Both the position numbers and the translations under genes were made by a program. From Candidatus Saccharimonadota bacterium (GTDB taxonomy: Bacteria > Patescibacteriota > Saccharimonadia > Saccharimonadales > JACDBH01): DNA of 64,000 nt. The notes beneath the pieces were generated by a model. That model was not told the DNA's origin and made no database searches. It was given only the letters and a program-made list of their open reading frames with translations. The stretch lies in the NCBI GenBank assembly GCA_028289135.1, contig JAQGGW010000004.1, positions 758 through 64,757 of the forward strand. The letters are read 5' to 3'. This document shows positions 838-61,888 of this stretch, one piece after another. How positions within the stretch are numbered: the stretch's first letter is position 1; each line of letters starts with the position of its first letter.

Positions 838-1692
838 ATGTTTAAAAAATACTACCAGTTAACCAAGCCTGGGATAATTTACGGCAATATTTTAACGGCT
901 ACAGCTGGATTTTTACTGGCTTCTCGCCACCATATTGACGTGCTTTTGCTTCTGGAAACACTGGCGGGGACATCGCTCATCATCGGTTCGGGCTGCGTAT
1001 TTAATAACTACATGGACCGCGGCATTGACGCAAAGATGGCTCGCACCAAAAAGCGGGCTTTGGTCCAAGAAACCATTCCGGTCGCAAACGCTCTTTTGTT
1101 CGGCAGCATTATTGGGCTAATTGGTTTCTGTATACTGAGCGTTTTCACCAGCACATTGGTATTTTACATCGGCCTGATTGGGTTCATAGACTACGTAGTC
1201 CTTTATGGCTACTTTAAGCGCCGTTCGGTCCACGGCACGCTTGTAGGCAGCATATCGGGCGCCACACCGATCTTAGCCGGCTACTGCGCCGCAAGAGGGC
1301 ATTTTGACAGCGGGGCAGCGATTGTATTTTTAATCATGGCCGTCTGGCAAATGCCGCATTTTTACGGGATTGCGATGTACCGTTTCAAGGATTACAAAGC
1401 CGCTGGAATCCCGGTTTTGCCAGTTGCCAAAAACATGCGAGCCGCCAAGCTGCAAACCCTTGTCTACATCATAGGTTTTATAGTCGCCTGTGCCTTGCTG
1501 ACGCTTTATAGCTACACCGGCTATATATTCTTGGGCGTCATGGTCATCGTGAGCCTTATGTGGTTTATAAAAGGGATACGGCTATACAACATAAAAGAAG
1601 ACAGTCTCTGGGGCCGCAAAATGTTTTTGTTTTCGCTCATCGTAGTGATGACGCTATCGGCAATGCTTTCTGTTGGCGCCCGCCTGCCTTAA
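838..1692 (+). CDS. cyoE: protoheme IX farnesyltransferase (heme O synthase)
   Basis: The 284-aa polytopic membrane ORF carries YQLTKPGIIYGN and NNYMDRGIDAKMARTKKRAL, the UbiA-type prenyltransferase motif of CyoE/CtaB. Confidence 0.88.
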   Translation: MFKKYYQLTKPGIIYGNILTATAGFLLASRHHIDVLLLLETLAGTSLIIGSGCVFNNYMDRGIDAKMARTKKRALVQETIPVANALLFGSIIGLIGFCILSVFTSTLVFYIGLIGFIDYVVLYGYFKRRSVHGTLVGSISGATPILAGYCAARGHFDSGAAIVFLIMAVWQMPHFYGIAMYRFKDYKAAGIPVLPVAKNMRAAKLQTLVYIIGFIVACALLTLYSYTGYIFLGVMVIVSLMWFIKGIRLYNIKEDSLWGRKMFLFSLIVVMTLSAMLSVGARLP

Positions 1693-6312: not shown

Positions 6313-7299
6313 TTACAAGATGAACATCGCATCGCCAAAAGAATAGAAGCGGTAGTTTTCTTTAACAGCATGCTCGTAGATCTTATGCAATTCTTCCACC
6401 GAACCTAAAAAGGCGCTCACCAGCATCAGCAGTGTACTTTTTGGCAAATGAAAATTAGTAATCAGCGAGGCGACAGCTTTAAATTCATAGCCGGGCGTAA
6501 TGAATATGGCTGTGGAGCCTTCTTCTTCGGCAAATGGCCGCTGTGCGCTCTCTAGAACCCGTACAGTCGTCGTACCGACCGCAACCGTGTGTATGGCGGC
6601 ATTCAGCTTGGCCGCGACCTCTGATGTAACAGAGTAGTGTTCTTCGTGCATAATGTGGTCTTTGATCTCATCTGTTTTTACAGGGGCGAAGGTGCCCATC
6701 CCAACGTGCAGGGTAACCTCGGCAAAGTCGTGGGTTTTTTTAATATTTGTTAAAAGCTCAGGGGTAAAGTGGAGCCCGGCAGTGGGCGCTGCCTTGCTGC
6801 CAAGCGGATCGGCATAGACGGTTTGGTATTCTTCGGCCAAAGACTCGTCCTGGGCAATGTAGGGTGGTAGAGGTGTTAGGCGGTGCGGGTCAAAACTTTG
6901 GTCGTCTAGCGTGCGGTCAAGACGGATGGTGCGGATGCCGTCTTCGGCAATGGCGTCAACCGTAAACTTAAAACCTTCAATAATCACTTCGCCAAGGCCG
7001 AATTTTCTGCCAGGGCGAACAAGCGCCGTAATGGTGGTTGGGTTAATGGTTTCCAGCACAAATATCTCTACTTTACCAAACTGCATGCGGCATTTTTCGA
7101 CACGGCTGTTATTTACAACCAGTGTTGATTTGGCAGGCAAATATTTTTCTAGATTGTAAAAATAGTCATCGGTAATTGTCTTGGTTTTGCGGTCATATAC
7201 TAGCAGCCGGGCATGGTCGCGCGGGCTAGCCGGCGTCTGGGCAATCAGGCGCTCAGGCAGCTCAAAATCAAAGTCTCTCAAAGTATAATTCTTAGGCAT
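6313..7299 (-). CDS. queA: S-adenosylmethionine:tRNA ribosyltransferase-isomerase
   Basis: MPKNYTLRDFDFELPERLIAQTP...HFTPELL...HVGMGTF is canonical QueA. The start is set at Met58 of track ORF 6313..7470, because the longer form overlaps the divergent helicase gene. Confidence 0.9.
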   Translation of the reverse strand: MPKNYTLRDFDFELPERLIAQTPASPRDHARLLVYDRKTKTITDDYFYNLEKYLPAKSTLVVNNSRVEKCRMQFGKVEIFVLETINPTTITALVRPGRKFGLGEVIIEGFKFTVDAIAEDGIRTIRLDRTLDDQSFDPHRLTPLPPYIAQDESLAEEYQTVYADPLGSKAAPTAGLHFTPELLTNIKKTHDFAEVTLHVGMGTFAPVKTDEIKDHIMHEEHYSVTSEVAAKLNAAIHTVAVGTTTVRVLESAQRPFAEEEGSTAIFITPGYEFKAVASLITNFHLPKSTLLMLVSAFLGSVEELHKIYEHAVKENYRFYSFGDAMFIL

Positions 7300-11353: not shown

Positions 11354-11460
11354 GTATACAAACCCTCCGTTAGTTTATTACCTACAATCATAATACGTTT
11401 TTATACTTTTGCAAATATTATCTGTAGAACACCTTGTTTTTACTGAACAAGAAACGGTAA

Positions 11461-11567
11461 CGTACACGAGTGCAGTTTGGCCGAAGAACGAGCACCGGAT
11501 TCGGAGTGTATAGGGAAATACATGCAGAAACGGAGCGGAGTTATTCGGTCAAAATGTGCCGTGTACG
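11461..11567 (-). repeat. intergenic structured repeat, type 1, copy A (candidate cis-acting RNA element)
   Basis: The closing helix is CGTACACG / CGTGTACG. It carries the conserved blocks GCACATTTTG, GCTCCG, CGGTGCT and AAACTGCACT shared with the copies at 17437 and 50148, and a central mini-hairpin GTATttccctATAC. It starts 1 nt after the atpC stop codon. Confidence 0.7.
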
Positions 11568-11993
11568 TTAGCGCCGTTTGTTTCTCTTCAAGCCAGCGAC
11601 TTGCAGGCGTACCGCATGTCTATCCATCAAACTTTGTGCGTGTTGTAATGACACTTGGTCTTTAGCCTCAGCCTTCATTTTCTTAGCCAACTCAAATGCC
11701 TTCTGCACTTCTTGTTCATTCAATTCATCTGCATGATCGGCTTCGTCAACCAAGATTTTTAGTTCGTCATTTTCGACCTGTACAGTACCGCCAGATATTG
11801 CAAAAACTTCGCGCTGGTCGTCACGCTCTCCAGCAGTTTTGCGCACCATAATCGCGCCGTGCGTTGCAACGCTAATTAGCGGCATGTGGCCGGGAAGCAC
11901 ACCGATTTCGCCGTCCAAAGTCGGGATCAAAACTTCGTATGCTTCGCCGTCAAATTTAACGCCGTCTAGTGTATATAAAACAAAGTGAATCAT
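11568..11993 (-). CDS. atpC: F1 ATP synthase subunit epsilon
   Basis: 141 aa with VLIPTLDGEIGVLPGHMPLISV, and it sits immediately after atpD. Confidence 0.88.
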   Translation of the reverse strand: MIHFVLYTLDGVKFDGEAYEVLIPTLDGEIGVLPGHMPLISVATHGAIMVRKTAGERDDQREVFAISGGTVQVENDELKILVDEADHADELNEQEVQKAFELAKKMKAEAKDQVSLQHAQSLMDRHAVRLQVAGLKRNKRR

Positions 11994-14917: not shown

Positions 14918-16479
14918 TATTTAGCTTCCTTCTTAACTTCAGCAATATGCTCGTAAGCCTTGGCAACACTCTTAGCAAGGTTCAAAATCTTTGTCTTGTC
15001 TTCGTCTGCTGGCTCAGCACCAGTGTTGAGGCCTTCGACAATCTTTGGATGGTCGTGCTTTAGGTCGCGGAGCAGTGCGGCTTCGGCGGTCTTGATTTTG
15101 TCCAATGGGACTTTGTCAAAAATACCTTCGGTAGCAGCCAAAAGCATCGTAAACATCTGCCATACACCGTATGGAGAATATTGCGGCTGCTTCAAAAGCT
15201 CTGTCAGGCGCTGGCCGCGCTCAATACTTTGCTTGGTTTCTGGGTCAAGGTCGGTAGAAAACTGGCTGAAGGCTGCAAGTTCGCGGAACTGGGCCAGGTC
15301 AATACGAAGTGATTTAGCAACTGATTTAACAGCCTTAGTCTGGGCAGAACCACCCACGCGTGAAACAGACAAGCCAACAGATACAGCTGGGCGGATACCC
15401 TGGTAGAACAAGTTGGTTTCCATAAAGATCTGACCATCAGTGATGGAAATGACGTTGGTAGGGATGTAGGCACTAATATCACCAGCTTGGGTCTCGATGA
15501 TTGGAAGGGCGGTTAAAGAACCAGCGCCGAGGTCATCAGACAGCTTAGCTGAACGCTCGAGCAAACGGCTGTGCAGGTAAAAAACATCACCAGGGTAGGC
15601 TTCGCGGCCCGGTGGACGGCGGAGCAACAGTGACATCTGGCGATAAGCCGCAGCGTGCTTGCTAAGGTCATCGTAGATGATCAAAGCGTGCTGTTTGTTA
15701 TCACGGAAGTATTCACCCATGGCAGTAGCCGCATAAGGAGCCAAGTACTGCAGTGACGCTGGGTCGGCAGCCGAAGTTGCGACCACAATTGTCTGGTCCA
15801 TAACGCCTTCGCGCTTTAGTCGCTCAACAAGACGGGCAACTTTGCTCATCTTCTGGCCAATGGCAACATAGATGTTCACGACACCGGTGTTTTGCTGGTG
15901 CTGGTTAATCATTGTATCGATCGCGATGGCGGTTTTACCGGTCTGGCGGTCACCAATAATAAGCTCGCGCTGGCCGCGGCCGATTGGCACCATGGCGTCA
16001 ATGGCGGTAATACCGGTCATAAGCGGTTCGTGCACACTCTTGCGTGAAAGAACACCTGGGGCAATCTTTTCAACAGCGCTAGTCATTGTTGTCTTGATGG
16101 CACCTTTGCCGTCGATTGGGTTACCCATTGGGTCAACAACGCGGCCTACAAGTTCTGGGCCAACAGGGACTTCGAGCACTTTACCGGTTAATTTGGCCTT
16201 GGCACCAGCTTTAATAAGCGTATCTTCGCCCAAAAGCACGCCGCCAATTTCGTCTTCGGAGAGGTTGAAGGCAAACGCTGTAACCGAGCTTCCGTCAGTA
16301 GCGTCAATTTCGATCATTTCGTTATAACCACAGGTTGTTAGCCCATAGATCCAAACCACACCGTCACCAACACGGGTGACAATACCAGTTTGTTCAATTT
16401 CTGGGCGCTTCTTAAGCTCGGCAATCGCAGTGCGGATATCTGCCGACAAGTCTGTGATTGATATATCTTTCATTACCAT
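14917..16479 (-). CDS. atpA: F1 ATP synthase subunit alpha
   Basis: Walker [14 protein letters not shown], 520 aa. Confidence 0.95.
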
Positions 16480-17407: not shown

Positions 17408-17436
17408 TTATTTATTCTCCAGGTCTAAGGATTTTT

Positions 17437-17540
17437 GTATATGAGTGCAGTTTGGGCGAAAAGCGAGCACCGTAAACGAGGCGTACGGGATGGTACGGTG
17501 AGTGCGGAGCGCAGATTTTCGTTCAAAATGTGCCATATAC
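17437..17540 (-). repeat. intergenic structured repeat, type 1, copy B, inside the atp operon (candidate cis-acting RNA element)
   Basis: The closing helix is GTATATG / CATATAC. The conserved blocks match copies A and C. The core is TCACC-GTACcatcccGTAC-GCCTC. The element occupies 104 nt of the 147-nt atpE-atpF spacer. Confidence 0.75.
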
Positions 17541-17554
17541 ATAAATCCTACTTA

Positions 17555-20816: not shown

Positions 20817-21407
20817 ATGCTAAGAGTACTTATGGCGTTTGAGGATTTTAAAACAAAAGAGTCGGTCGTGTTGGTTTATACCGGCGAGGGCAAAGGCAAA
20901 ACATCTGCCAGCGTGGGGCTGATGGCGCGCGCATTAGGACGGGGGTGGAAAGTGGCCTATGTGCAATTTGTAAAAACCTGGGAAACAGGCGAGTCGCAGT
21001 TTATTGCCAAACTGCTAGAATCTAAAGTTTTTGAAGATAAATTGGTTTATTTTAGAGGCGGCAAAGGATTTTATAACGCCGGTGATTTAAGCGCCAAAGA
21101 TGTTAGCGAAAACGAGCATAAAGAAGCCGCCCGTACCACTTATGAATTTGCACTTAAATGCATTAAAGACCCATCGTTTGACCTAATTATCTGCGATGAA
21201 ATCAACAACTCCGTGCATGATGGCCTTTTGCCAAAGGCTAGCCTCAAAAAGCTCCTAACCAGCCGCGGCGCAGGTACTAGCATTTGTGTAACTGGGCGTA
21301 ACTTCCCAGAGGACCTTTTGCCGCTAATGGACATAGCCACCAACATGACCAAAATTAAGCACCACTTTGATGATAAATTTTTGGCTAACAAAGGTATTGA
21401 TTACTAA
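20817..21407 (+). CDS. cob(I)yrinic acid a,c-diamide adenosyltransferase (CobO/BtuR family)
   Basis: VLVYTGEGKGKTSASVGLMARALGRGWKVAYVQFVK plus ICDEIN match the CobA/CobO/BtuR P-loop family. The start is set at an internal Met downstream of the previous gene's stop. Confidence 0.7.
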   Translation: MLRVLMAFEDFKTKESVVLVYTGEGKGKTSASVGLMARALGRGWKVAYVQFVKTWETGESQFIAKLLESKVFEDKLVYFRGGKGFYNAGDLSAKDVSENEHKEAARTTYEFALKCIKDPSFDLIICDEINNSVHDGLLPKASLKKLLTSRGAGTSICVTGRNFPEDLLPLMDIATNMTKIKHHFDDKFLANKGIDY

Positions 21408-22402
21408 TGTTTGCAGCAACTGCAGTTCAAAGCCTCAACATCCACGCAGCATGGTGGCACTGGGCGCTACTCGGCGGCTGGTTTTTATTTTTGATCCTTT
21501 TTGACATTTTGGTTGTGCACCGCAAAGACCATGTGCCGACGCTTAAAACGGCCGTCCAACAGAGTGCAGTGTGGATCGCGCTTGGCGTTGCACTTGGTTT
21601 AGTGGTATTTGCGGCCTATGGACATGAAGCGGGCAGCCAGTATTTTAGCGGCTATTTGATAGAGAAATCATTGTCTGTCGATAACGTGTTTGCGTGGTCA
21701 GTGATATTGGGCTACTTTAAGGTGCCAAAAGAGTATCAGCACCGGGTGTTGTTCTGGGGGATATTTGGCGCGCTAATTATGCGCACTGTGTTTGTTTTTG
21801 CCGGCATTTCATTGATTAACCACTTCGAACCAATCTTGCTCGTTTTTGGAATCCTGCTCTGTTTTAGCGGCTACAAACTTCTTAAAACCCGCGAAGAAGA
21901 TGAATTTGACCCAAGCAAAAGCAAGCTTTTTAAAACAATTAAAAAAGTTATTCCTGTTAGCCATGGCTTGGACGGCCACAAATTGTTCACAGCCGAAAAT
22001 GGAAAACGGGTTGCCACCATGCTGTTTATGGCGTTGCTTGTCATAGAAATCACTGATGTAATCTTTGCCGTGGACAGCGTTCCGGCAATCTTGGCCATTT
22101 CGCGTGATCCTTTCATTGTGTTGGCCAGCAATGCCGCCGCCATCTTGGGTCTCCGCGCACTATATTTTGTGTTTGAGTTTATTAAGGATAAGTTCTGGAT
22201 GCTAAATAAAGCGCTCGGCGTTTTGCTGTTCTTTATTGGTGTAAAAATGTTTATAACGCCTGAGAAAATTTTTGGCCACGCTTGGCTGTATGTTCACATT
22301 TCAACGGGAATCAGCCTGATAATTATTGGCCTTATGCTTGCAGTTGGCATAGTCGGTTCATTACTCTATCCTCAGGCCACAAATCCCACACCAGCTAAGT
22401 AA
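21407..22402 (+). CDS. TerC-family integral membrane protein
   Basis: A 331-aa polytopic protein with EKSLSVDNVFAW and FAVDSVPAILAIS, the TerC signatures. Confidence 0.8.
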   Translation: MFAATAVQSLNIHAAWWHWALLGGWFLFLILFDILVVHRKDHVPTLKTAVQQSAVWIALGVALGLVVFAAYGHEAGSQYFSGYLIEKSLSVDNVFAWSVILGYFKVPKEYQHRVLFWGIFGALIMRTVFVFAGISLINHFEPILLVFGILLCFSGYKLLKTREEDEFDPSKSKLFKTIKKVIPVSHGLDGHKLFTAENGKRVATMLFMALLVIEITDVIFAVDSVPAILAISRDPFIVLASNAAAILGLRALYFVFEFIKDKFWMLNKALGVLLFFIGVKMFITPEKIFGHAWLYVHISTGISLIIIGLMLAVGIVGSLLYPQATNPTPAK

Positions 22403-22432
22403 ATGTGGGCAAAGCCCAGCATTATACTTAGC

Positions 22433-22542
22433 CTCTCGGCTCATTTCGGCTTGAGACTTTGCGGTGCGCAGAAGCAGTACCCACATGTACAACTTCTTTG
22501 CGCTTCGCAGCCTCGCACCGAAATGAGCTCGAGTGTGGAATC
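22433..22542 (+). repeat. intergenic structured repeat, type 2, copy D (candidate cis-acting RNA element)
   Basis: A long helix GGCTCATTTCGG / CCGAAATGAGCT encloses TTGCGgtgCGCAG, the mini-hairpin GTACccacatGTAC and TTTGCGcttCGCAG. The 3' block is AGCTCGAGTGTGGAATC. It is collinear with the copy at 61468. Confidence 0.7.
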
Positions 22543-22560
22543 TGTGGTAAGCTCACCACT

Positions 22561-23151
22561 ATGAAAAGATTACTGACAAGCCGGGACAGGCGTAAATTAC
22601 TGTCATTTGGGATTAGCCTGATTATATTAGGCGGCACGGCTATTGCCCAAAAACAGGGGTGGCTGCACAAAGCGGCAGCCACTGTACAGCAAGTCCAGCC
22701 AGGTACATATAAAGTCGTGGAGTTTGTTGACGGCGACACGATTGCGGTCGACATGAACGGGAAAACCGAAAAACTTCGGTTCATTGGAGTTGATACGCCA
22801 GAAACCCATGACCCCCGTAAAGCCGTGCAGTGTTTTGGCGTTAAAGCCGCGGCATTTACAAAAGGCTTGATCGGCAGCAACAATGTCCGGTTAGAAAGCG
22901 ACCCGCTTGGCACCAACCGCGACCGCTACGACCGCCTGCTGCGCTACATCTACCTCCCAGACGGCACACTGGTAAACGCCGAGATAATCAAACAGGGCTA
23001 CGGCTTTGCTTACACTGGCTTTCCGTTTACCAAATCTGATGAGTTTTTGGCCGACCAAAAAGCCGCCCGCGAAGGCAACAAGGGCCTTTGGAATAGCTGC
23101 ACACCAACAGCCAATCAGTACGGTGGATTTACGAGCAACAATGCCAACTAA
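22561..23151 (+). CDS. secreted thermonuclease (SNase / micrococcal nuclease-like)
   Basis: A TM/signal anchor is followed by VVEFVDGDTIAV...RFIGVDTPET...DRYDRLLRYIY. The start is set at Met35 of the track ORF because the upstream part overlaps repeat D. Confidence 0.85.
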   Translation: MKRLLTSRDRRKLLSFGISLIILGGTAIAQKQGWLHKAAATVQQVQPGTYKVVEFVDGDTIAVDMNGKTEKLRFIGVDTPETHDPRKAVQCFGVKAAAFTKGLIGSNNVRLESDPLGTNRDRYDRLLRYIYLPDGTLVNAEIIKQGYGFAYTGFPFTKSDEFLADQKAAREGNKGLWNSCTPTANQYGGFTSNNAN

Positions 23152-50053: not shown

Positions 50054-50147
50054 TACCTATACGATACCATTTCTTTTACTTACTAGAATATACTTTACTA
50101 AAAACCCGCCGATTCTTTATAGCCCGCAGATATCGATGGGTTTCGAA

Positions 50148-50247
50148 CGATAGTGCAGCTTGGGATGAAAGCCAAGCACCGAAGCGGAGGCGTATGGCAT
50201 GATACGGTGAGCATCGGAGCACAGGCTTTCGCCCAAGATGTGCATCG
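50148..50247 (-). repeat. intergenic structured repeat, type 1, copy C (candidate cis-acting RNA element)
   Basis: The closing helix is CGAT / ATCG, extendable imperfectly to 50142..50253. The second helix is CTTGGG..AAAGCC / GGCTTT..CCCAAG. The core is TCACC-GTATcatgccATAC-GCCTC, and the conserved blocks match copies A and B. Confidence 0.72.
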
Positions 50248-50265
50248 TGCGGAAGCCTCTCACAT

Positions 50266-55071: not shown

Positions 55072-55120
55072 GATAAAAGTCTAACATAATATTGCTCTTT
55101 CGTCAATATGACTTATCTGT

Positions 55121-55126
55121 TATAAT
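55121..55126 (+). promoter_or_regulatory. -10 box TATAAT (TGTTATAAT), 9 nt upstream of the der ATG
   Basis: CTGTTATAATggacacaacATG. Confidence 0.45.
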
Positions 55127-55135
55127 GGACACAAC

Positions 55136-56551
55136 ATGGCAGTTAAAGTACCTATCGTTGCAATCATCGGTCGCGCGAACGTTGGCAAGTCCAGCTTATT
55201 CAATGCGGCCCTCGGACGGCGCGAGGCGATTGTCGCTGACGAAGCAGGTACAACCCGCGATAGCCTTTATGGCAAAGTTACCTTTTATGACAAGGATTTC
55301 TGGCTGGTCGACACAGCTGGGCTCAAGCAAAAAGCCGCCGATGAATTTGAGTTTACCATCCAGGAACAGATTGCCCAGGCCGCCGACAGCGCCGACCTTA
55401 TTTTGGTCGTTATTGAATCGCACGTTACGCTGACCGAAGAAGACCGCAAAGTCGCCAAAATGGCGCTTAAGACCCGCAAACCAGTCATTTTGGTCGTTAA
55501 CAAGGGTGACAAGCTTGGCCGCCACATCAACGACCAAGATGTTATGACGCCATACCAGCGCCTCGGCATCAAGGACATTTTTATCACATCTGCAACCCAG
55601 TCAGCAGGGATCGAAGAGTTGTTTGAATACGTCAGCGAACAGATACCGCGCGCCACAATCGTCGTGGCCGAAGACCGCATCTCCCTCGCCATCTTAGGCC
55701 GCCCAAACGTTGGCAAATCCCAGCTTTTTAACACCTTGGCCAAAAAACAGCAGGCAATCGTCGCCGACCGAGCCGGCACCACCCGTGACATTAACCGCAC
55801 CGCTGTTAAGTTTATGGGCAAAGAGATTGAGCTCATGGACACCGCTGGCATCCGCCGCAATGGCAAGATTGAAGTGGGCGTTGAGAAGTTTAGTGTTATC
55901 CGCTCCTTAAGCGCCATTGAACAATCCGACATCTGTCTGCTCCTAATCGACGCTAATGACCTAAGTGTCCAGCTTGACCAAAAAATTGCCGGTATGATCA
56001 AAGAAGCGGGCAAGGGGTTAATTATCATCATAAGCAAATGGGACAGCGTCGAAGACAAAGACGCCTGGACCCACGACAAAATGATCCCCAAAGTCCAGGC
56101 CGAGTTTGAATTTGTACCATGGGCGCCAATGATCGTCACCAGCTCGGTAACAGGGCAGAATGTCGCTAAAATCTTCGAAATGGTTGTCGAGATCTCAAAC
56201 ACCCGCCACAAGCGCATCAAAACAACCGAGCTCAACGGCTGGCTGCACAAAACCACCGACCGCCACCCGCCAGCCGGCCTCAAAAACCGCCAGCCAAAAC
56301 TCCGTTATGTCGTCCAAGAAGAGGGCAATGACTCGCCAAACTTCAAGATTTTTGGCTCACAGCTTAAGTTTTTACACTGGTCATACCGCCGCCACATGGA
56401 CCGGACCTTCCGCGAAACCTTTGGTTTTGAAGGCACTCCCGTAAAGTTCTGGTACATAGACCAGCATGAACCGCGAGAGAAAAAAGACGGTATCGACTGG
56501 AAAAAATCCCTCCGCCCCGACCAGCTCCCCGACCGCACCAAAAAAGACTGA
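55136..56551 (+). CDS. der: ribosome-associated GTPase Der (EngA)
   Basis: Two tandem GTPase domains (GRANVGKSSLFN...DTAG; GRPNVGKSQLFN...DTAG) plus a KH-like C-terminus. Confidence 0.92.
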   Translation: MAVKVPIVAIIGRANVGKSSLFNAALGRREAIVADEAGTTRDSLYGKVTFYDKDFWLVDTAGLKQKAADEFEFTIQEQIAQAADSADLILVVIESHVTLTEEDRKVAKMALKTRKPVILVVNKGDKLGRHINDQDVMTPYQRLGIKDIFITSATQSAGIEELFEYVSEQIPRATIVVAEDRISLAILGRPNVGKSQLFNTLAKKQQAIVADRAGTTRDINRTAVKFMGKEIELMDTAGIRRNGKIEVGVEKFSVIRSLSAIEQSDICLLLIDANDLSVQLDQKIAGMIKEAGKGLIIIISKWDSVEDKDAWTHDKMIPKVQAEFEFVPWAPMIVTSSVTGQNVAKIFEMVVEISNTRHKRIKTTELNGWLHKTTDRHPPAGLKNRQPKLRYVVQEEGNDSPNFKIFGSQLKFLHWSYRRHMDRTFRETFGFEGTPVKFWYIDQHEPREKKDGIDWKKSLRPDQLPDRTKKD

Positions 56552-58938: not shown

Positions 58939-59898
58939 ATGCGTGCTGTTGAACTGTTCTATGACCCCCGTCACGCCATACATAACCCGGCCTATGAGCT
59001 CTACAATGGCATCCAAACACCATATGCTGAGTGTGCCGATAGACTAGAGGTTATTGCAGAGCATTTGCAGCAATCTGGACGCAAATTAAGGCGCCCACGT
59101 TCTTATGACATAAGTCATGTCCGAGCGCTTCATTCAGCGCCTTACATTAACTTTGTCAGGGAAACATCGGCGCGGCTAAAAAACGGTGAGACACTCATGC
59201 CTAGTAACTTCATCATGGACACATACACGCCAATAACCGGCCGTACATATCAGGCTGCCCGGCAGGCTGTTTCTACCGCGCTTACAGCAGCACACTATGT
59301 TTTGAGTAATCATGACGGCATGGCGTATGCACTATGCCGTCCGCCTGGCCATCATGCCGCGCAAAAACACAGTGGAGGCTACTGTTATTTTAATAACGCG
59401 GCCATCGCAGCAAACTACCTTTCTGGACATGGCAGGATTGCTATCCTGGACATTGACTACCATCACGGCAACGGCACTCAAGAACTATTCTACGACAGGG
59501 ATGATGTGCTATATGTTTCAATCCACGCCGACCCGAGTTTGCAGTTCCCATACATTAGCGGATTTAAAAGTGAAACAGGAGAAGGCCGGGGCAAAGGCTT
59601 TACCAAAAATTACCCACTACCGCTACATACAGGAAACGCCCAGTATTTTCGAACCCTGAGGCGTGCCGTACAAGACGTTCAAAACTTCAACCCTGATTTT
59701 TTGGTAATTTCAGCTGGTTTTGATGCCCATGAAGCCGATCCAATCTGTCGTTTTGACCTAACAACCTCGTGCTATGCAGATATTGGCAGTACCATCAGTG
59801 CTCTTAATCTACCAACAATAATAGTCCAAGAAGGAGGCTACAACCTAAAAACCCTCGGCATACTCGCCGAAACCTTCATTAATTGCCTTGAGAAATAA
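58939..59898 (+). CDS. histone deacetylase-family amidohydrolase (AcuC / acetylpolyamine deacetylase-like)
   Basis: CRPPGHHA, LDIDYHHGNGTQ and EGGY are the Zn-dependent deacetylase motifs. The ATG directly follows the upstream stop (TAAATG). Confidence 0.85.
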   Translation: MRAVELFYDPRHAIHNPAYELYNGIQTPYAECADRLEVIAEHLQQSGRKLRRPRSYDISHVRALHSAPYINFVRETSARLKNGETLMPSNFIMDTYTPITGRTYQAARQAVSTALTAAHYVLSNHDGMAYALCRPPGHHAAQKHSGGYCYFNNAAIAANYLSGHGRIAILDIDYHHGNGTQELFYDRDDVLYVSIHADPSLQFPYISGFKSETGEGRGKGFTKNYPLPLHTGNAQYFRTLRRAVQDVQNFNPDFLVISAGFDAHEADPICRFDLTTSCYADIGSTISALNLPTIIVQEGGYNLKTLGILAETFINCLEK

Positions 59899-59940
59899 AA
59901 AGGTTTAAGAAAGACTGTCTACGAATAAAATTTTCCAACT

Positions 59941-59985
59941 AAAAAGAGTCTGTAGAGGGGGTGGGCACCGCTACAGACTCTTTTT
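59941..59985 (+). terminator. intrinsic terminator (bidirectional-capable)
   Basis: AAAAAGAGTCTGTAG agggggtgggcaccg CTACAGACTCTTTTT, with perfect 15-nt arms that include A and T runs. Confidence 0.7.
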
Positions 59986-59989
59986 AGGC

Positions 59990-60300
59990 TCAAGACAAGC
60001 TTAAGCCAATAAAACACCCTTCAACCCACCTTGAAGGCCTCCCCACACCATCTCTGGGCTTGTGAACGCTCTCGTATTGCGCTCAAAGTCCAGAGAAGGT
60101 GTGGGGCCCACTCGTGGTTGTCCGACATATCCTGGCCATCAAAAAGTGCGAGGGAGGAATGCGGGGTTAAAGGGGTTAGTCCGCTTTAGAACGTTTGCAC
60201 CTCTAAAGGGATGCGTAGCTAGATAAGTGGAGGGTAACAACTTATAAAGCACGTTCTAAAACAGCCTAACGATTTCACTTGGATTGCTCCAAATGAACGT
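59990..60300. ncRNA. unassigned, strongly structured non-coding region (candidate housekeeping or regulatory RNA)
   Basis: There is no ORF of 60 aa or more on either strand across about 500 nt. Hairpin CCTTCAA/TTGAAGG at 60018..60037. A 17-bp helix CCCCACACCATCTCTGG / CCAGAGAAGGTGTGGGG at 60041..60057 with 60090..60106. A long-range bipartite helix GTTAG..TTTAGAACGT / ACGTTCTAAA..CTAAC at 60175..60194 with 60251..60270. Confidence 0.35.
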
Positions 60301-60412
60301 TAAAATAGGGGTATAAGGTACATAAATCCCATAAAGAGACTCACGGATTGCTATTTTAGCAAACTTATGACATTATGTCAATACTTAAATACAAAAGAGG
60401 GTAGTTGTCAAT

Positions 60413-61261
60413 ATGCTAACGCTTACTTTACCAGAGATACCGCATGATCTTCGCCAGTTGGCGCAGCCGGTAGAAAAACTCCATATTATAGGTAATACAC
60501 TGGACGATCTTATGCAGCGTCCGCGCCTTGCAATTGTTGGCAGCCGCAAGATTACACCATATGGCAGGGGAGTCACCGAAAGCCTCACAGCCGAGCTCGT
60601 AAGCAAGGGCGTAGTAATTGTCAGCGGGCTGGCACTTGGGACTGATTCCATCGCCCACCAGGCATGTTTGGACGCTGGCGGCCAGACAATAGCAGTAATA
60701 GCTAGCGGCCCAGACGCTATCTATCCAGCCGGCCACACCAACCTTGCTAGGGAAATTGTGAAAAAAGGCGGCATTGTCGCCACCGAATACGATAAAGGCC
60801 ACAAACCATTTGCATGGGACTTTTTGGCGCGCAACCGTATAATTGCCGCTTTAAGCCAAGGCGTACTTGTTACAGAAGCGGCGGCCAAAAGCGGCTCACT
60901 AAACACCGCCAACCACGCGCTGCAGCTCGGCAAGCCAGTCTTTGCGGTGCCCGGCAACATCACCAACCCCTTAAGCGCAGGCTGCAATAACCTCATTAAA
61001 GCCGGCGCCATTCCTGTTACATGCGTCGAAGATATTCTAAATGCCTTGGAATGGTACGACTTGGCAGCGGCACCAAAAAAAATCTTAGGAGCAACCGATG
61101 AAGAAAACACCATTATTCAGCTTTTGCAGCACGGTGTTAGCGACGGGGCAGAACTACTCCTGAGAAGCGAGCTTGAGACTAGCCCCTTCAACCAAGCCCT
61201 GACCATGCTTGAAATTACTGGCAAAATCCGCCCGCTCGGCGCCAACCACTGGTCATTGTAA
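60413..61261 (+). CDS. dprA: DNA-processing protein DprA (Smf)
   Basis: LAIVGSRKITPYG...VIVSGLALGTDSIAHQ...GSLNTA is the Rossmann-like DprA core. Confidence 0.88.
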   Translation: MLTLTLPEIPHDLRQLAQPVEKLHIIGNTLDDLMQRPRLAIVGSRKITPYGRGVTESLTAELVSKGVVIVSGLALGTDSIAHQACLDAGGQTIAVIASGPDAIYPAGHTNLAREIVKKGGIVATEYDKGHKPFAWDFLARNRIIAALSQGVLVTEAAAKSGSLNTANHALQLGKPVFAVPGNITNPLSAGCNNLIKAGAIPVTCVEDILNALEWYDLAAAPKKILGATDEENTIIQLLQHGVSDGAELLLRSELETSPFNQALTMLEITGKIRPLGANHWSL

Positions 61262-61463: not shown

Positions 61464-61467
61464 TCCA

Positions 61468-61588
61468 GGAATCCCACACTTGGCTATTTCCGCCCCGAGT
61501 CCTTGCGGTACGCAGTCACCATAATTAGATATATGCCTCCTTTGCGTTCCGCAGACTCAGAACGAAACTAGCTCGAGCGTGGAATCCC
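61468..61588 (+). repeat. intergenic structured repeat, type 2, copy E (candidate cis-acting RNA element)
   Basis: Collinear with copy D. The elements are GGCTATTTCCG / CGAAACTAGCT, TTGCGgtaCGCAG, TCACC-ataattagatatat-GCCTCC, TTTGCGttcCGCAG and AGCTCGAGCGTGGAATC. GGAATCCC occurs at both ends (61468 and 61581). Confidence 0.7.
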
Positions 61589-61888
61589 TGAAGTTGTGAG
61601 GAAAAATTTCTCAGTTTTGTGTTTGAAACTTGACGGGTACACCTTTGATACAGTAGGGTAAGGAGCTATATGCCAATTCAGGCATGACTTTAACCATAAG
61701 TTTGATAGACTACAGTGTACATGAACGCGTACCAGAATAACTTACTAGGCATAAAATGAATTATTTGCGAGATAAAATTAACAAAGTGCGACAAGAGGTA
61801 GCATTAGCTACATTGCGAAGCAGTTTGTTAATTTTAGCCGAAAATAGTCATTTTAGGGCAGGAAGGATATTCCGGTACGCGTTCTAAT

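Follow-up and report, generated by a model that had tools for sequence, protein, structure and literature searches.

Copy D, a structured repeat between terC and the gene for a secreted nuclease, belongs to a family of previously undescribed, ~125-base hairpin-forming repeats of soil Saccharibacteria. We regard D, at a probability of roughly 0.7, as one copy of a dispersed, non-coding, mobile palindromic repeat of MITE- or ERIC-like character that is passive in the terC-nuclease transcript. The copies are polymorphic between relatives and occur in unrelated contexts, and they therefore show the behavior of mobile DNA. Throughout, the window denotes the whole stretch of DNA that was analysed, 64,000 nucleotides in length.

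Results

Position and boundaries of copy D

The preliminary description placed D at 22433-22542, which proved too narrow. The folded unit spans 22376-22548, including the last terC codons and a private 39-nt side hairpin, and reaches -86 kcal/mol (z = -10.4); in this fold the terC tail at 22376-22402 pairs with 22421-22432 and with 22533-22548. The covariance-model match of D covers 22418-22548 and scores 115.8 bits. A second copy of the private side hairpin was looked for and found nowhere in the sequence searched. The terC tail is probably native coding sequence, because NP.P-type tails are common among TerC homologues, though it also resembles the left arm of copy E. The insert itself is flanked by the terC stop codon on one side and by the short native spacer on the other. 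In the relative L265 the native spacer, GGGTAGTCCACCT, is similar to GGTAAGCTCACCACT of the window, just 5' of ATG 22561, and from this resemblance the inserted DNA is taken to run from 22403 to ~22545 (Table 1).

The start codon of the nuclease gene is ATG 22561, and D is non-coding. An independent gene call gives a protein of 196 aa from this codon, and the orthologues, which lie directly 3' of terC, begin with M(K/S)R.LLT.R..RK; the earlier proposal that the element is non-coding and that the nuclease begins at Met 22561 is borne out on both counts. The longest nuclease reading frame, 230 aa from TTG 22459 (the start quoted in that description), reads through D. D lies 18 nt upstream of ATG 22561, and its insertion puts 158 nt between the terC stop and the nuclease start.

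Table 1. Coordinates of copy D, its neighbors and the other family members (window positions unless a contig is named)
Feature	Position	Strand	Remarks
terC gene, upstream neighbor of D	21407..22402	+	
Last nine terC codons and stop, GCCACAAATCCCACAC..GCTAAGTAA	22376..22402	+	5' strands of outermost helix and side hairpin
Side hairpin private to D, GCTAAGTAAAT..ATTATACTTAGC, inner TGGGC-AAA-GCCCA	22394..22432	+	5' arm holds terC stop codon
DNA inserted at D relative to element-free relatives	22403 to ~22545	+	From empty sites in L129, L132 and L265 and from spacer similarity
Copy D, conserved rod-like hairpin core (type 2)	22435..22533	+	From folds, alignments and pair counts
Rod parts of copy D	helix 22438-22449 / 22518-22529; TTGCG..CGCAG blocks 22459-22471 and 22498-22510		Apical GTAC-loop-GTAC hairpin
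Right outer arm of D, GTGTGGAATCTGTGGT	22533..22548	+	Part of insert; homologous to right arm of E; complementary to terC tail 22376-22391
Staphylococcal-nuclease-family gene, N-terminal membrane anchor	22561..23151	+	Pfam SNase; start ATG 22561
Copy E (type 2)	61466..61592	+	2-3 nt 3' of stop of a 58-aa membrane-protein gene; upstream of topA
Type-1 copy, between atpE and atpF	17425..17554	-	
Type-1 copy, directly 3' of atpC stop	11450..11580	-	Outermost helix formed by native atpC tail and inverted tail copy (11446-11460)
Type-1 copy, between an intrinsic terminator and the next gene's promoter region	50133..50264	-	
UCACC...hairpin...GCCUCC(UUU) loop	E 61516-61541; type 1 17475-17501 and 50183-50209; L122 ~1230-1254		

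A dispersed family with two subtypes

D and E (61468-61590) are collinear over ~110 nt, their rods are 68% identical, and the blocks quoted for them in the preliminary description are present, as had been claimed. The sequence TTGCGGTRCGCAG matches exactly in D and E only, and AGCTCGAGYGTGGAATC is matched twice in the window against 0.2 expected. The three type-1 copies, all on the minus strand, align with D and E over the whole length, so that the two subtypes form one family. The motif TCACC...GCCTCC of E had been proposed to link the subtypes, and the type-1 copies do carry it.

A covariance model was built from eight copies and run on the window with its filters off. It recovered exactly five copies, at 94-117 bits, with the rest of the window at noise level; the profile and covariance-model E-values of these five range from 1e-20 to 1e-28. 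Each copy is ~115-130 nt long, and the five lie 5-28 kb apart within 64 kb, among housekeeping genes. The window copies are mutually 45-70% identical, and E is 82% identical to the copy of L122, which belongs to another genome. Six further copies are present in other Saccharibacteria contigs (L046, L122, L124, L125, L134/L135 and L137). The copies have no conserved reading frame; in L125 a 71-aa gene is called over one of them.

Known families and other sequence collections were searched as well. Rfam gave no match to the family at gathering or permissive thresholds; in the window only three tRNAs pass, and the best sub-threshold matches on D, E and one type-1 copy are at chance level. Plasmids and phages gave no family match, and the literature yielded nothing relevant to such a repeat family. 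For the AtpE sequence of the window, an exact look-up gave no record. Viral contigs gave zero matches to the type-2 pattern and 120 to a loose type-1 pattern, all of them chance by profile search. In the pattern scan of the genome collection, L046 is the only true relative among the matches listed; the others listed are identical copies of an alphaproteobacterial insertion sequence and cyanobacterial tandem repeats, the pattern being too loose. A stricter pattern scan of metagenomes gave two true members, L122 and L124. The metagenome contigs L120, L121 and L123 contain long tandem arrays of a ~39-nt unit, TTTTGCG(G/T)TGCGCAGTCCAGTCGCAGGCTAACACCAGG, which match the pattern by chance and are unrelated to the element. 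L129 carries a palindrome of ~75 nt at ~15860-15935 (minus strand), GGAGTGCAGAACTG...CAGTTCTGTGCC, which has type-1-like ends and was missed by the covariance model; it occupies the site upstream of pyrH, which in L125 is filled by a full copy that runs the other way.

Filled and empty sites among relatives

D is absent from the terC-nuclease junction in all five of the nearest relatives. The terC stop is separated from the nuclease start by 0 nt in L132 (TerC 80% identical), by 7 nt in L129 (83%) and by 20 nt in L265 (85%). In L125 and L264 (both 87%) an unrelated gene on the opposite strand lies between terC and the nuclease gene, with no element there. This extra gene (10981-11667 in L125, 1058-1534 in L264) encodes 228 aa of unassigned function. 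Its presence in the two closest TerC relatives makes the junction seem a recurrent insertion point.

The other sites behave similarly. E is absent between the 58-aa gene and topA in L137 (DprA 94% identical), L139 and L142; the atpE-atpF copy is absent in L125, L129 and L132, where a spacer of 20-23 nt is found instead; the copy 3' of atpC is absent in L129; and L137 lacks the copy at 50133-50264. The reverse also occurs: at the start codon of der, L137 carries an insert where the window, L139 and L142 have an empty site, and this insert supplies der with a new Shine-Dalgarno sequence and a GTG start. At the empty der sites (window ~55100-55140, L139 ~6940-6975, L142 ~6870-6905) a TATAAT box stands only 7-9 nt 5' of the ATG, which suggests that the der mRNA is leaderless; with the L137 insert, der gains a leader. 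A similar layout, with a weaker, TATAGG-like box, is seen at the ABC-transporter gene (50054-50080) that follows the copy at 50133-50264. The site between the PH-domain gene and ychF is filled in L122 and L124 and empty in the window's own genome (L267), where the genes have a 4-nt stop-codon overlap. L122 and L124 share the insertion position and the outer arms; the flanking protein is 70% identical between them, and the rods have diverged to 67% with compensatory changes. This copy was apparently inherited vertically.

In the preliminary description the element was read as a 5' leader of the nuclease gene. A cis-regulatory leader controlling this gene (a riboswitch, thermosensor or protein-binding leader) would suit the 18-nt distance of D from the true start, its very stable fold and the lack of an obvious Shine-Dalgarno sequence before the nuclease ATG. 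The empty orthologous sites in the five nearest relatives largely refute this reading, other family members adjoin unrelated genes, and no Rfam cis-regulator matches; we consider it very improbable. D stands in the untranslated spacer upstream of the nuclease start only because the insertion occurred there. Nor is the family tied to a particular downstream gene: other copies lie after atpE, after atpC and behind a terminator, between convergent genes, upstream of promoters and in the interior of operons, and the genes that they precede or follow are atpF, an aquaporin gene, topA, a ZIP transporter gene, ychF, pyrH, pheS and der.

The element folds as a single imperfect rod

The minimum-energy fold of D has -51.1 kcal/mol (z = -5.5) and that of E -33.4 kcal/mol (z = -3.1). 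The preliminary description had a 12-bp helix closing a three-hairpin junction. The helix, GGCTCATTTCGG/CCGAAATGAGCT, and a fully paired central arm are both present in D's minimum-energy fold and stand; the junction does not, and covariation favors a rod. Both structures were scored on an alignment of 11 sequences from both subtypes. In the rod model 79.6% of cells are paired, as compared with 59.6% in shuffles, 27 of the 33 pairs have changed on both sides, and the covariation score is 0.532, as against at most 0.154 with the partners slid. In the junction model the side hairpins are 73-80% paired, with no pair changed on both sides in either of the two; its overall score of 0.282 comes from helices that it has in common with the rod, and many compensatory changes fall in a stretch that it leaves unpaired. 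The side hairpins also fail in the type-1 copies, and the junction was rejected. Extension of the alignment with homologues, which had been proposed as a check, gave 11 copies, among which covariation supports the rod pairings and not those of the side hairpins.

The element is a single imperfect rod-like hairpin with conserved terminal and central helices. Its termini pair within the whole-element hairpin, the terminal helix (alignment columns 19-26 / 114-122) being kept with compensatory changes, and the apical 4-bp hairpin is kept as GTAC-loop-GTAC or in an ATAT-type form. The two TTGCG..CGCAG blocks pair with each other in 94.5% of cells, and the pair 50/89 occurs as CG, AU, GC and UA. In the middle of this long-range helix (columns 49 and 90) lies a T/T (U.U) mismatch, at 22465 opposite 22504 in D (both on the plus strand), which is invariant in 11 of 11 copies of both subtypes while the flanking pairs covary. 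Because the mismatch is invariant, some sequence-specific constraint is implied, and the mismatch is a candidate recognition point for a mobilizing factor.

The conserved blocks could alternatively be double-stranded DNA sites for a dimeric regulator (in type 2, TGCG-NNN-CGCA in two blocks 39 bp apart), with the repeat acting as a dispersed operator. In D, E, L122, L124 and L046 both blocks indeed have the same, nearly palindromic sequence. The type-1 blocks, however, are not self-palindromic, yet covariation keeps their mutual pairing, and the sites lie inside operons and after stop codons and not at promoters. We regard an operator function as extremely improbable.

The internal loop UCACC...GCCUCC is common to E, L122 and two type-1 copies, and the same positions are Watson-Crick paired in D and L124. 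With its trailing UUU we take this loop to resemble a split 16S rRNA 3' tail, the other strand reading AAAGGAGG...GGUGA. A further idea is that the UCACC...GCCUCCUUU loop of many copies might mimic the 16S rRNA 3' tail and interact with ribosome-binding sites.

Strand asymmetry and possible roles of a transcript

All ten copies tested fold better, by 6-23 kcal/mol, on the strand opposite to D's plus-aligned strand, although these copies share ancestry and the asymmetry does not amount to ten independent observations. For D the values are -53.6 kcal/mol on the plus-aligned strand and -59.5 kcal/mol on the opposite one, and for E they are -47.2 and -70.6 kcal/mol. The consensus fold agrees, with -12.5 kcal/mol and 22 pairs on the plus-aligned strand versus -30.4 kcal/mol and 32 pairs on the opposite strand, as do the G.U pairs over the union of both pair sets (20 versus 38). 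In all five window copies it is the weaker-folding strand that is co-directional with the flanking genes, and the L137 copy is reversed. Among the five copies judged to lie inside transcription units, four carry the weaker-folding strand in the mRNA, which hints at selection at the RNA level.

The asymmetry would accord with a small structured RNA made from the better-folding strand, which for D would be antisense to terC and the nuclease gene, and which would act as an antisense or trans-acting regulator. A promoter-like site with 10 of 12 matches (22649 to 22621, minus strand) is directed into D, and D's side hairpin contains a terminator-like hairpin (22418-22406, minus strand); together these two consensus matches would frame an antisense RNA of ~200 nt. 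The promoter-like site, however, is not part of the repeat but of the nuclease gene's coding region, E has nothing comparable, and no conserved promoter is present inside the element. The copies are related by descent, which weakens the argument from asymmetry, and a multi-copy, polymorphic distribution is unusual for the gene of a trans-acting RNA. Such an RNA is accordingly quite improbable.

A host function at the RNA level, with mobility secondary, would have the element act as an intercistronic or 3'-end stem-loop against 3' exonucleases, or as an RNase III cleavage site that uncouples cistrons. REP and ERIC elements have been proposed to act in this way, as stem-loops that protect mRNA or are cut by RNase III. 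In favor of such a function, D, E and two type-1 copies start within ~0-3 nt of the stop of a co-directional upstream gene, two of these four lie inside operons, the five window copies have one orientation relative to the flanking genes, and compensatory changes keep the structure, also in the vertically inherited pair of L122 and L124. Intergenic spacers are tiny in this genome, however, so any insert between genes comes to lie close to a stop. Several copies are not part of a transcription unit, being placed upstream of promoters or 3' of a terminator; the L137 copy, in a 5' UTR, is oriented the other way; at every site checked, close relatives lack the element; and the mRNAs carry the weaker-folding strand. 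We judge a primary host function of this kind unlikely.

Several other readings were also rejected. An intrinsic terminator is contradicted by the absence of a T run after D or E and by a scan that finds no terminator at the element ends. An orientation bias linked to replication does not agree with the copies, whose orientation changes with that of the local genes within 64 kb. Mini-ORFs on the opposite strand, with GGAGG near AUG in some copies, conserve neither spacing nor frame. Insertion into the loops of pre-existing terminator hairpins does not fit the empty site between the PH-domain gene and ychF, which is a 4-nt stop overlap, or L129, in which no hairpin follows atpC.

Flanking gene sequence mirrored in the outer arms

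The copy 3' of atpC carries, at its end away from the gene, an inverted duplicate of the native atpC tail, and the two sequences form its outermost helix (11446-11460 with 11568-11582); L129, which lacks the element, has the same atpC tail. D is built alike: its outermost helix consists of the probably native tail of terC, the upstream gene, and an inverted duplicate of this tail at the insert's far end. Intramolecular template switching at quasi-palindromes is a known mutational process, and it would explain both the compensatory changes and the extension of the arms without selection on RNA.

These features allow a more specific form of mobility, in which the family would be a transposase-independent mobile palindrome, or one mobilized by a hairpin-recognizing enzyme. 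The folded single strand would then be the unit of both mobility and maintenance, template switching would keep the arms complementary and extend them into the host flank, and the T/T mismatch would be the enzyme's recognition mark. This proposal would explain the compensatory changes, the arms of D and of the atpC copy that mirror gene tails, and the likeness of E's arms to the terC tail. We nevertheless consider it, in this full form, distinctly unlikely.

Discussion

The favored reading, a mobile palindromic repeat, implies the following history for copy D. In relatives the nuclease gene sits directly next to terC, and the two are probably coupled in translation. In the present lineage a copy was inserted directly behind the terC stop, ahead of the native spacer and the nuclease start. 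Within the terC-nuclease transcript it would now be a passive and very stable stem-loop, and its likeliest consequence would be incidental, in that the nuclease start was moved away from the terC stop. D may in addition affect mRNA processing or stability, a role that has been reported for other intergenic palindromic repeats. The analysis establishes the family membership, the rod structure, the polymorphism between relatives, the nuclease start and the insertion boundaries; the mechanism of mobility, the active form (DNA or RNA), the meaning of the strand asymmetry and any effect on expression are inferred.

No transposase, no longer element with the same ends and no isolated half-elements were found in ~310 kb of Saccharibacteria loci. 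A target-site duplication of 3 nt is possible, as TAG/TAA flanks the insert in L122 and L124 and ATGG/GTGG flanks that in L137; D and the copies 3' of atpC and atpE show no direct duplication. With only 45-70% identity within one genome, recent transposition would be unexpected, except from a large pool of diverged source copies in other parts of the genome. The compensatory changes in the L122/L124 pair suggest that the structure itself is maintained.

Among known elements, the bacterial MITEs (Correia of Neisseria and RUP of Streptococcus pneumoniae) resemble the family in being short (~100-150 nt), non-coding, multi-copy and mostly intergenic, with inverted termini. Presence and absence of MITEs also differ between close relatives, and MITEs are often co-transcribed as stable hairpins. 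The present family correspondingly shows short non-coding units in multiple copies, filled and empty orthologous sites, and terminal inverted repeats. Unlike MITEs, it comes with no cognate transposase or longer parent in the Saccharibacteria sequence searched and with no consistent target-site duplication; the whole element, and not the termini alone, forms one hairpin; the copies are highly diverged within one genome; and the outer arms of some copies mirror the host flank.

The ERIC/IRU elements of enterobacteria (~127 bp) and the Rickettsia palindromic elements (RPE) are imperfect palindromes that are transcribed, either intergenic or running into gene ends. We know of no transposase for either, and as far as we are aware both keep their structure while the sequence drifts. 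RPEs live in small, reduced genomes. The present family has a similar length and is likewise an imperfect palindrome over the whole element; it differs in belonging to another phylum, and the T/T mismatch and the two subtypes are specific to it. Identity with ERIC/IRU or REP was rejected, since E. coli genomes carry both and a sensitive blastn search of E (word size 11) against 5,426 of them gave no match.

REP/BIME elements with RAYT (a Y1 transposase) and the palindromes derived from IS200/IS605 are hairpin repeats that are recognized as a single-stranded fold and not by their duplex sequence, with unpaired or mismatched bases as recognition marks. Strand asymmetry of the fold is expected for REP/BIME and is seen in the present family. 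REPs, however, are 20-40 nt long, have a conserved 5' tetranucleotide and are usually clustered, whereas the copies here occur singly, at 115-130 nt each, and neither a RAYT nor a TnpA gene is present in the Saccharibacteria sequence examined. Integron attC sites share further features with the family: they are imperfect palindromes (57-141 nt) placed after the stop of a co-directional gene, their structure is conserved more than their sequence, and the better-folding strand, which in attC is the recombining strand, is opposite to the coding strand. An attC identity was rejected, as GTTRRRY/RYYYAAC core sites are missing (neither D nor E has GTTRRRY at its 3' end) and neither a cassette array nor an adjacent integrase is present; unlike attC, the copies here sit among housekeeping genes, including the interior of the atp operon.

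Repeats of this kind have consequences for annotation, as they will lead to spurious N-terminal extensions and spurious small genes in assemblies of Saccharibacteria; the 71-aa gene called over the L125 copy is an example. They also show that compact genomes of ~1 Mb, with spacers of 0-20 nt and overlapping stops, tolerate and exchange hairpin inserts of 125 nt, even in the ATP synthase operon. The insertions can serve as a marker for differences at the strain level, and they raise the question of how tightly coupled gene expression survives such inserts. If the mirrored flanks and the invariant mismatch reflect a mechanism of insertion or maintenance, the family could reveal how palindromes spread without a recognizable transposase.

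Other hairpins in the window

Two further structured regions were observed. Between E and the topA start (~61889), positions 61723-61884 form an AT-rich nested palindrome, unrelated to the family, with outer arms of 44 nt and inner arms of 30 nt. It is absent from the same spot in L137 and looks like another inserted hairpin element. Upstream of dprA lies a gene-free stretch of 500-680 nt (window 59898-60413; ~9300-10000 in L137, L139 and L142) that is kept in all these relatives. It matches no Rfam family, and in the window it contains three strong hairpins, at 59939-59987, 60041-60106 and 60175-60270; this stretch may be an undescribed RNA gene or regulatory region.
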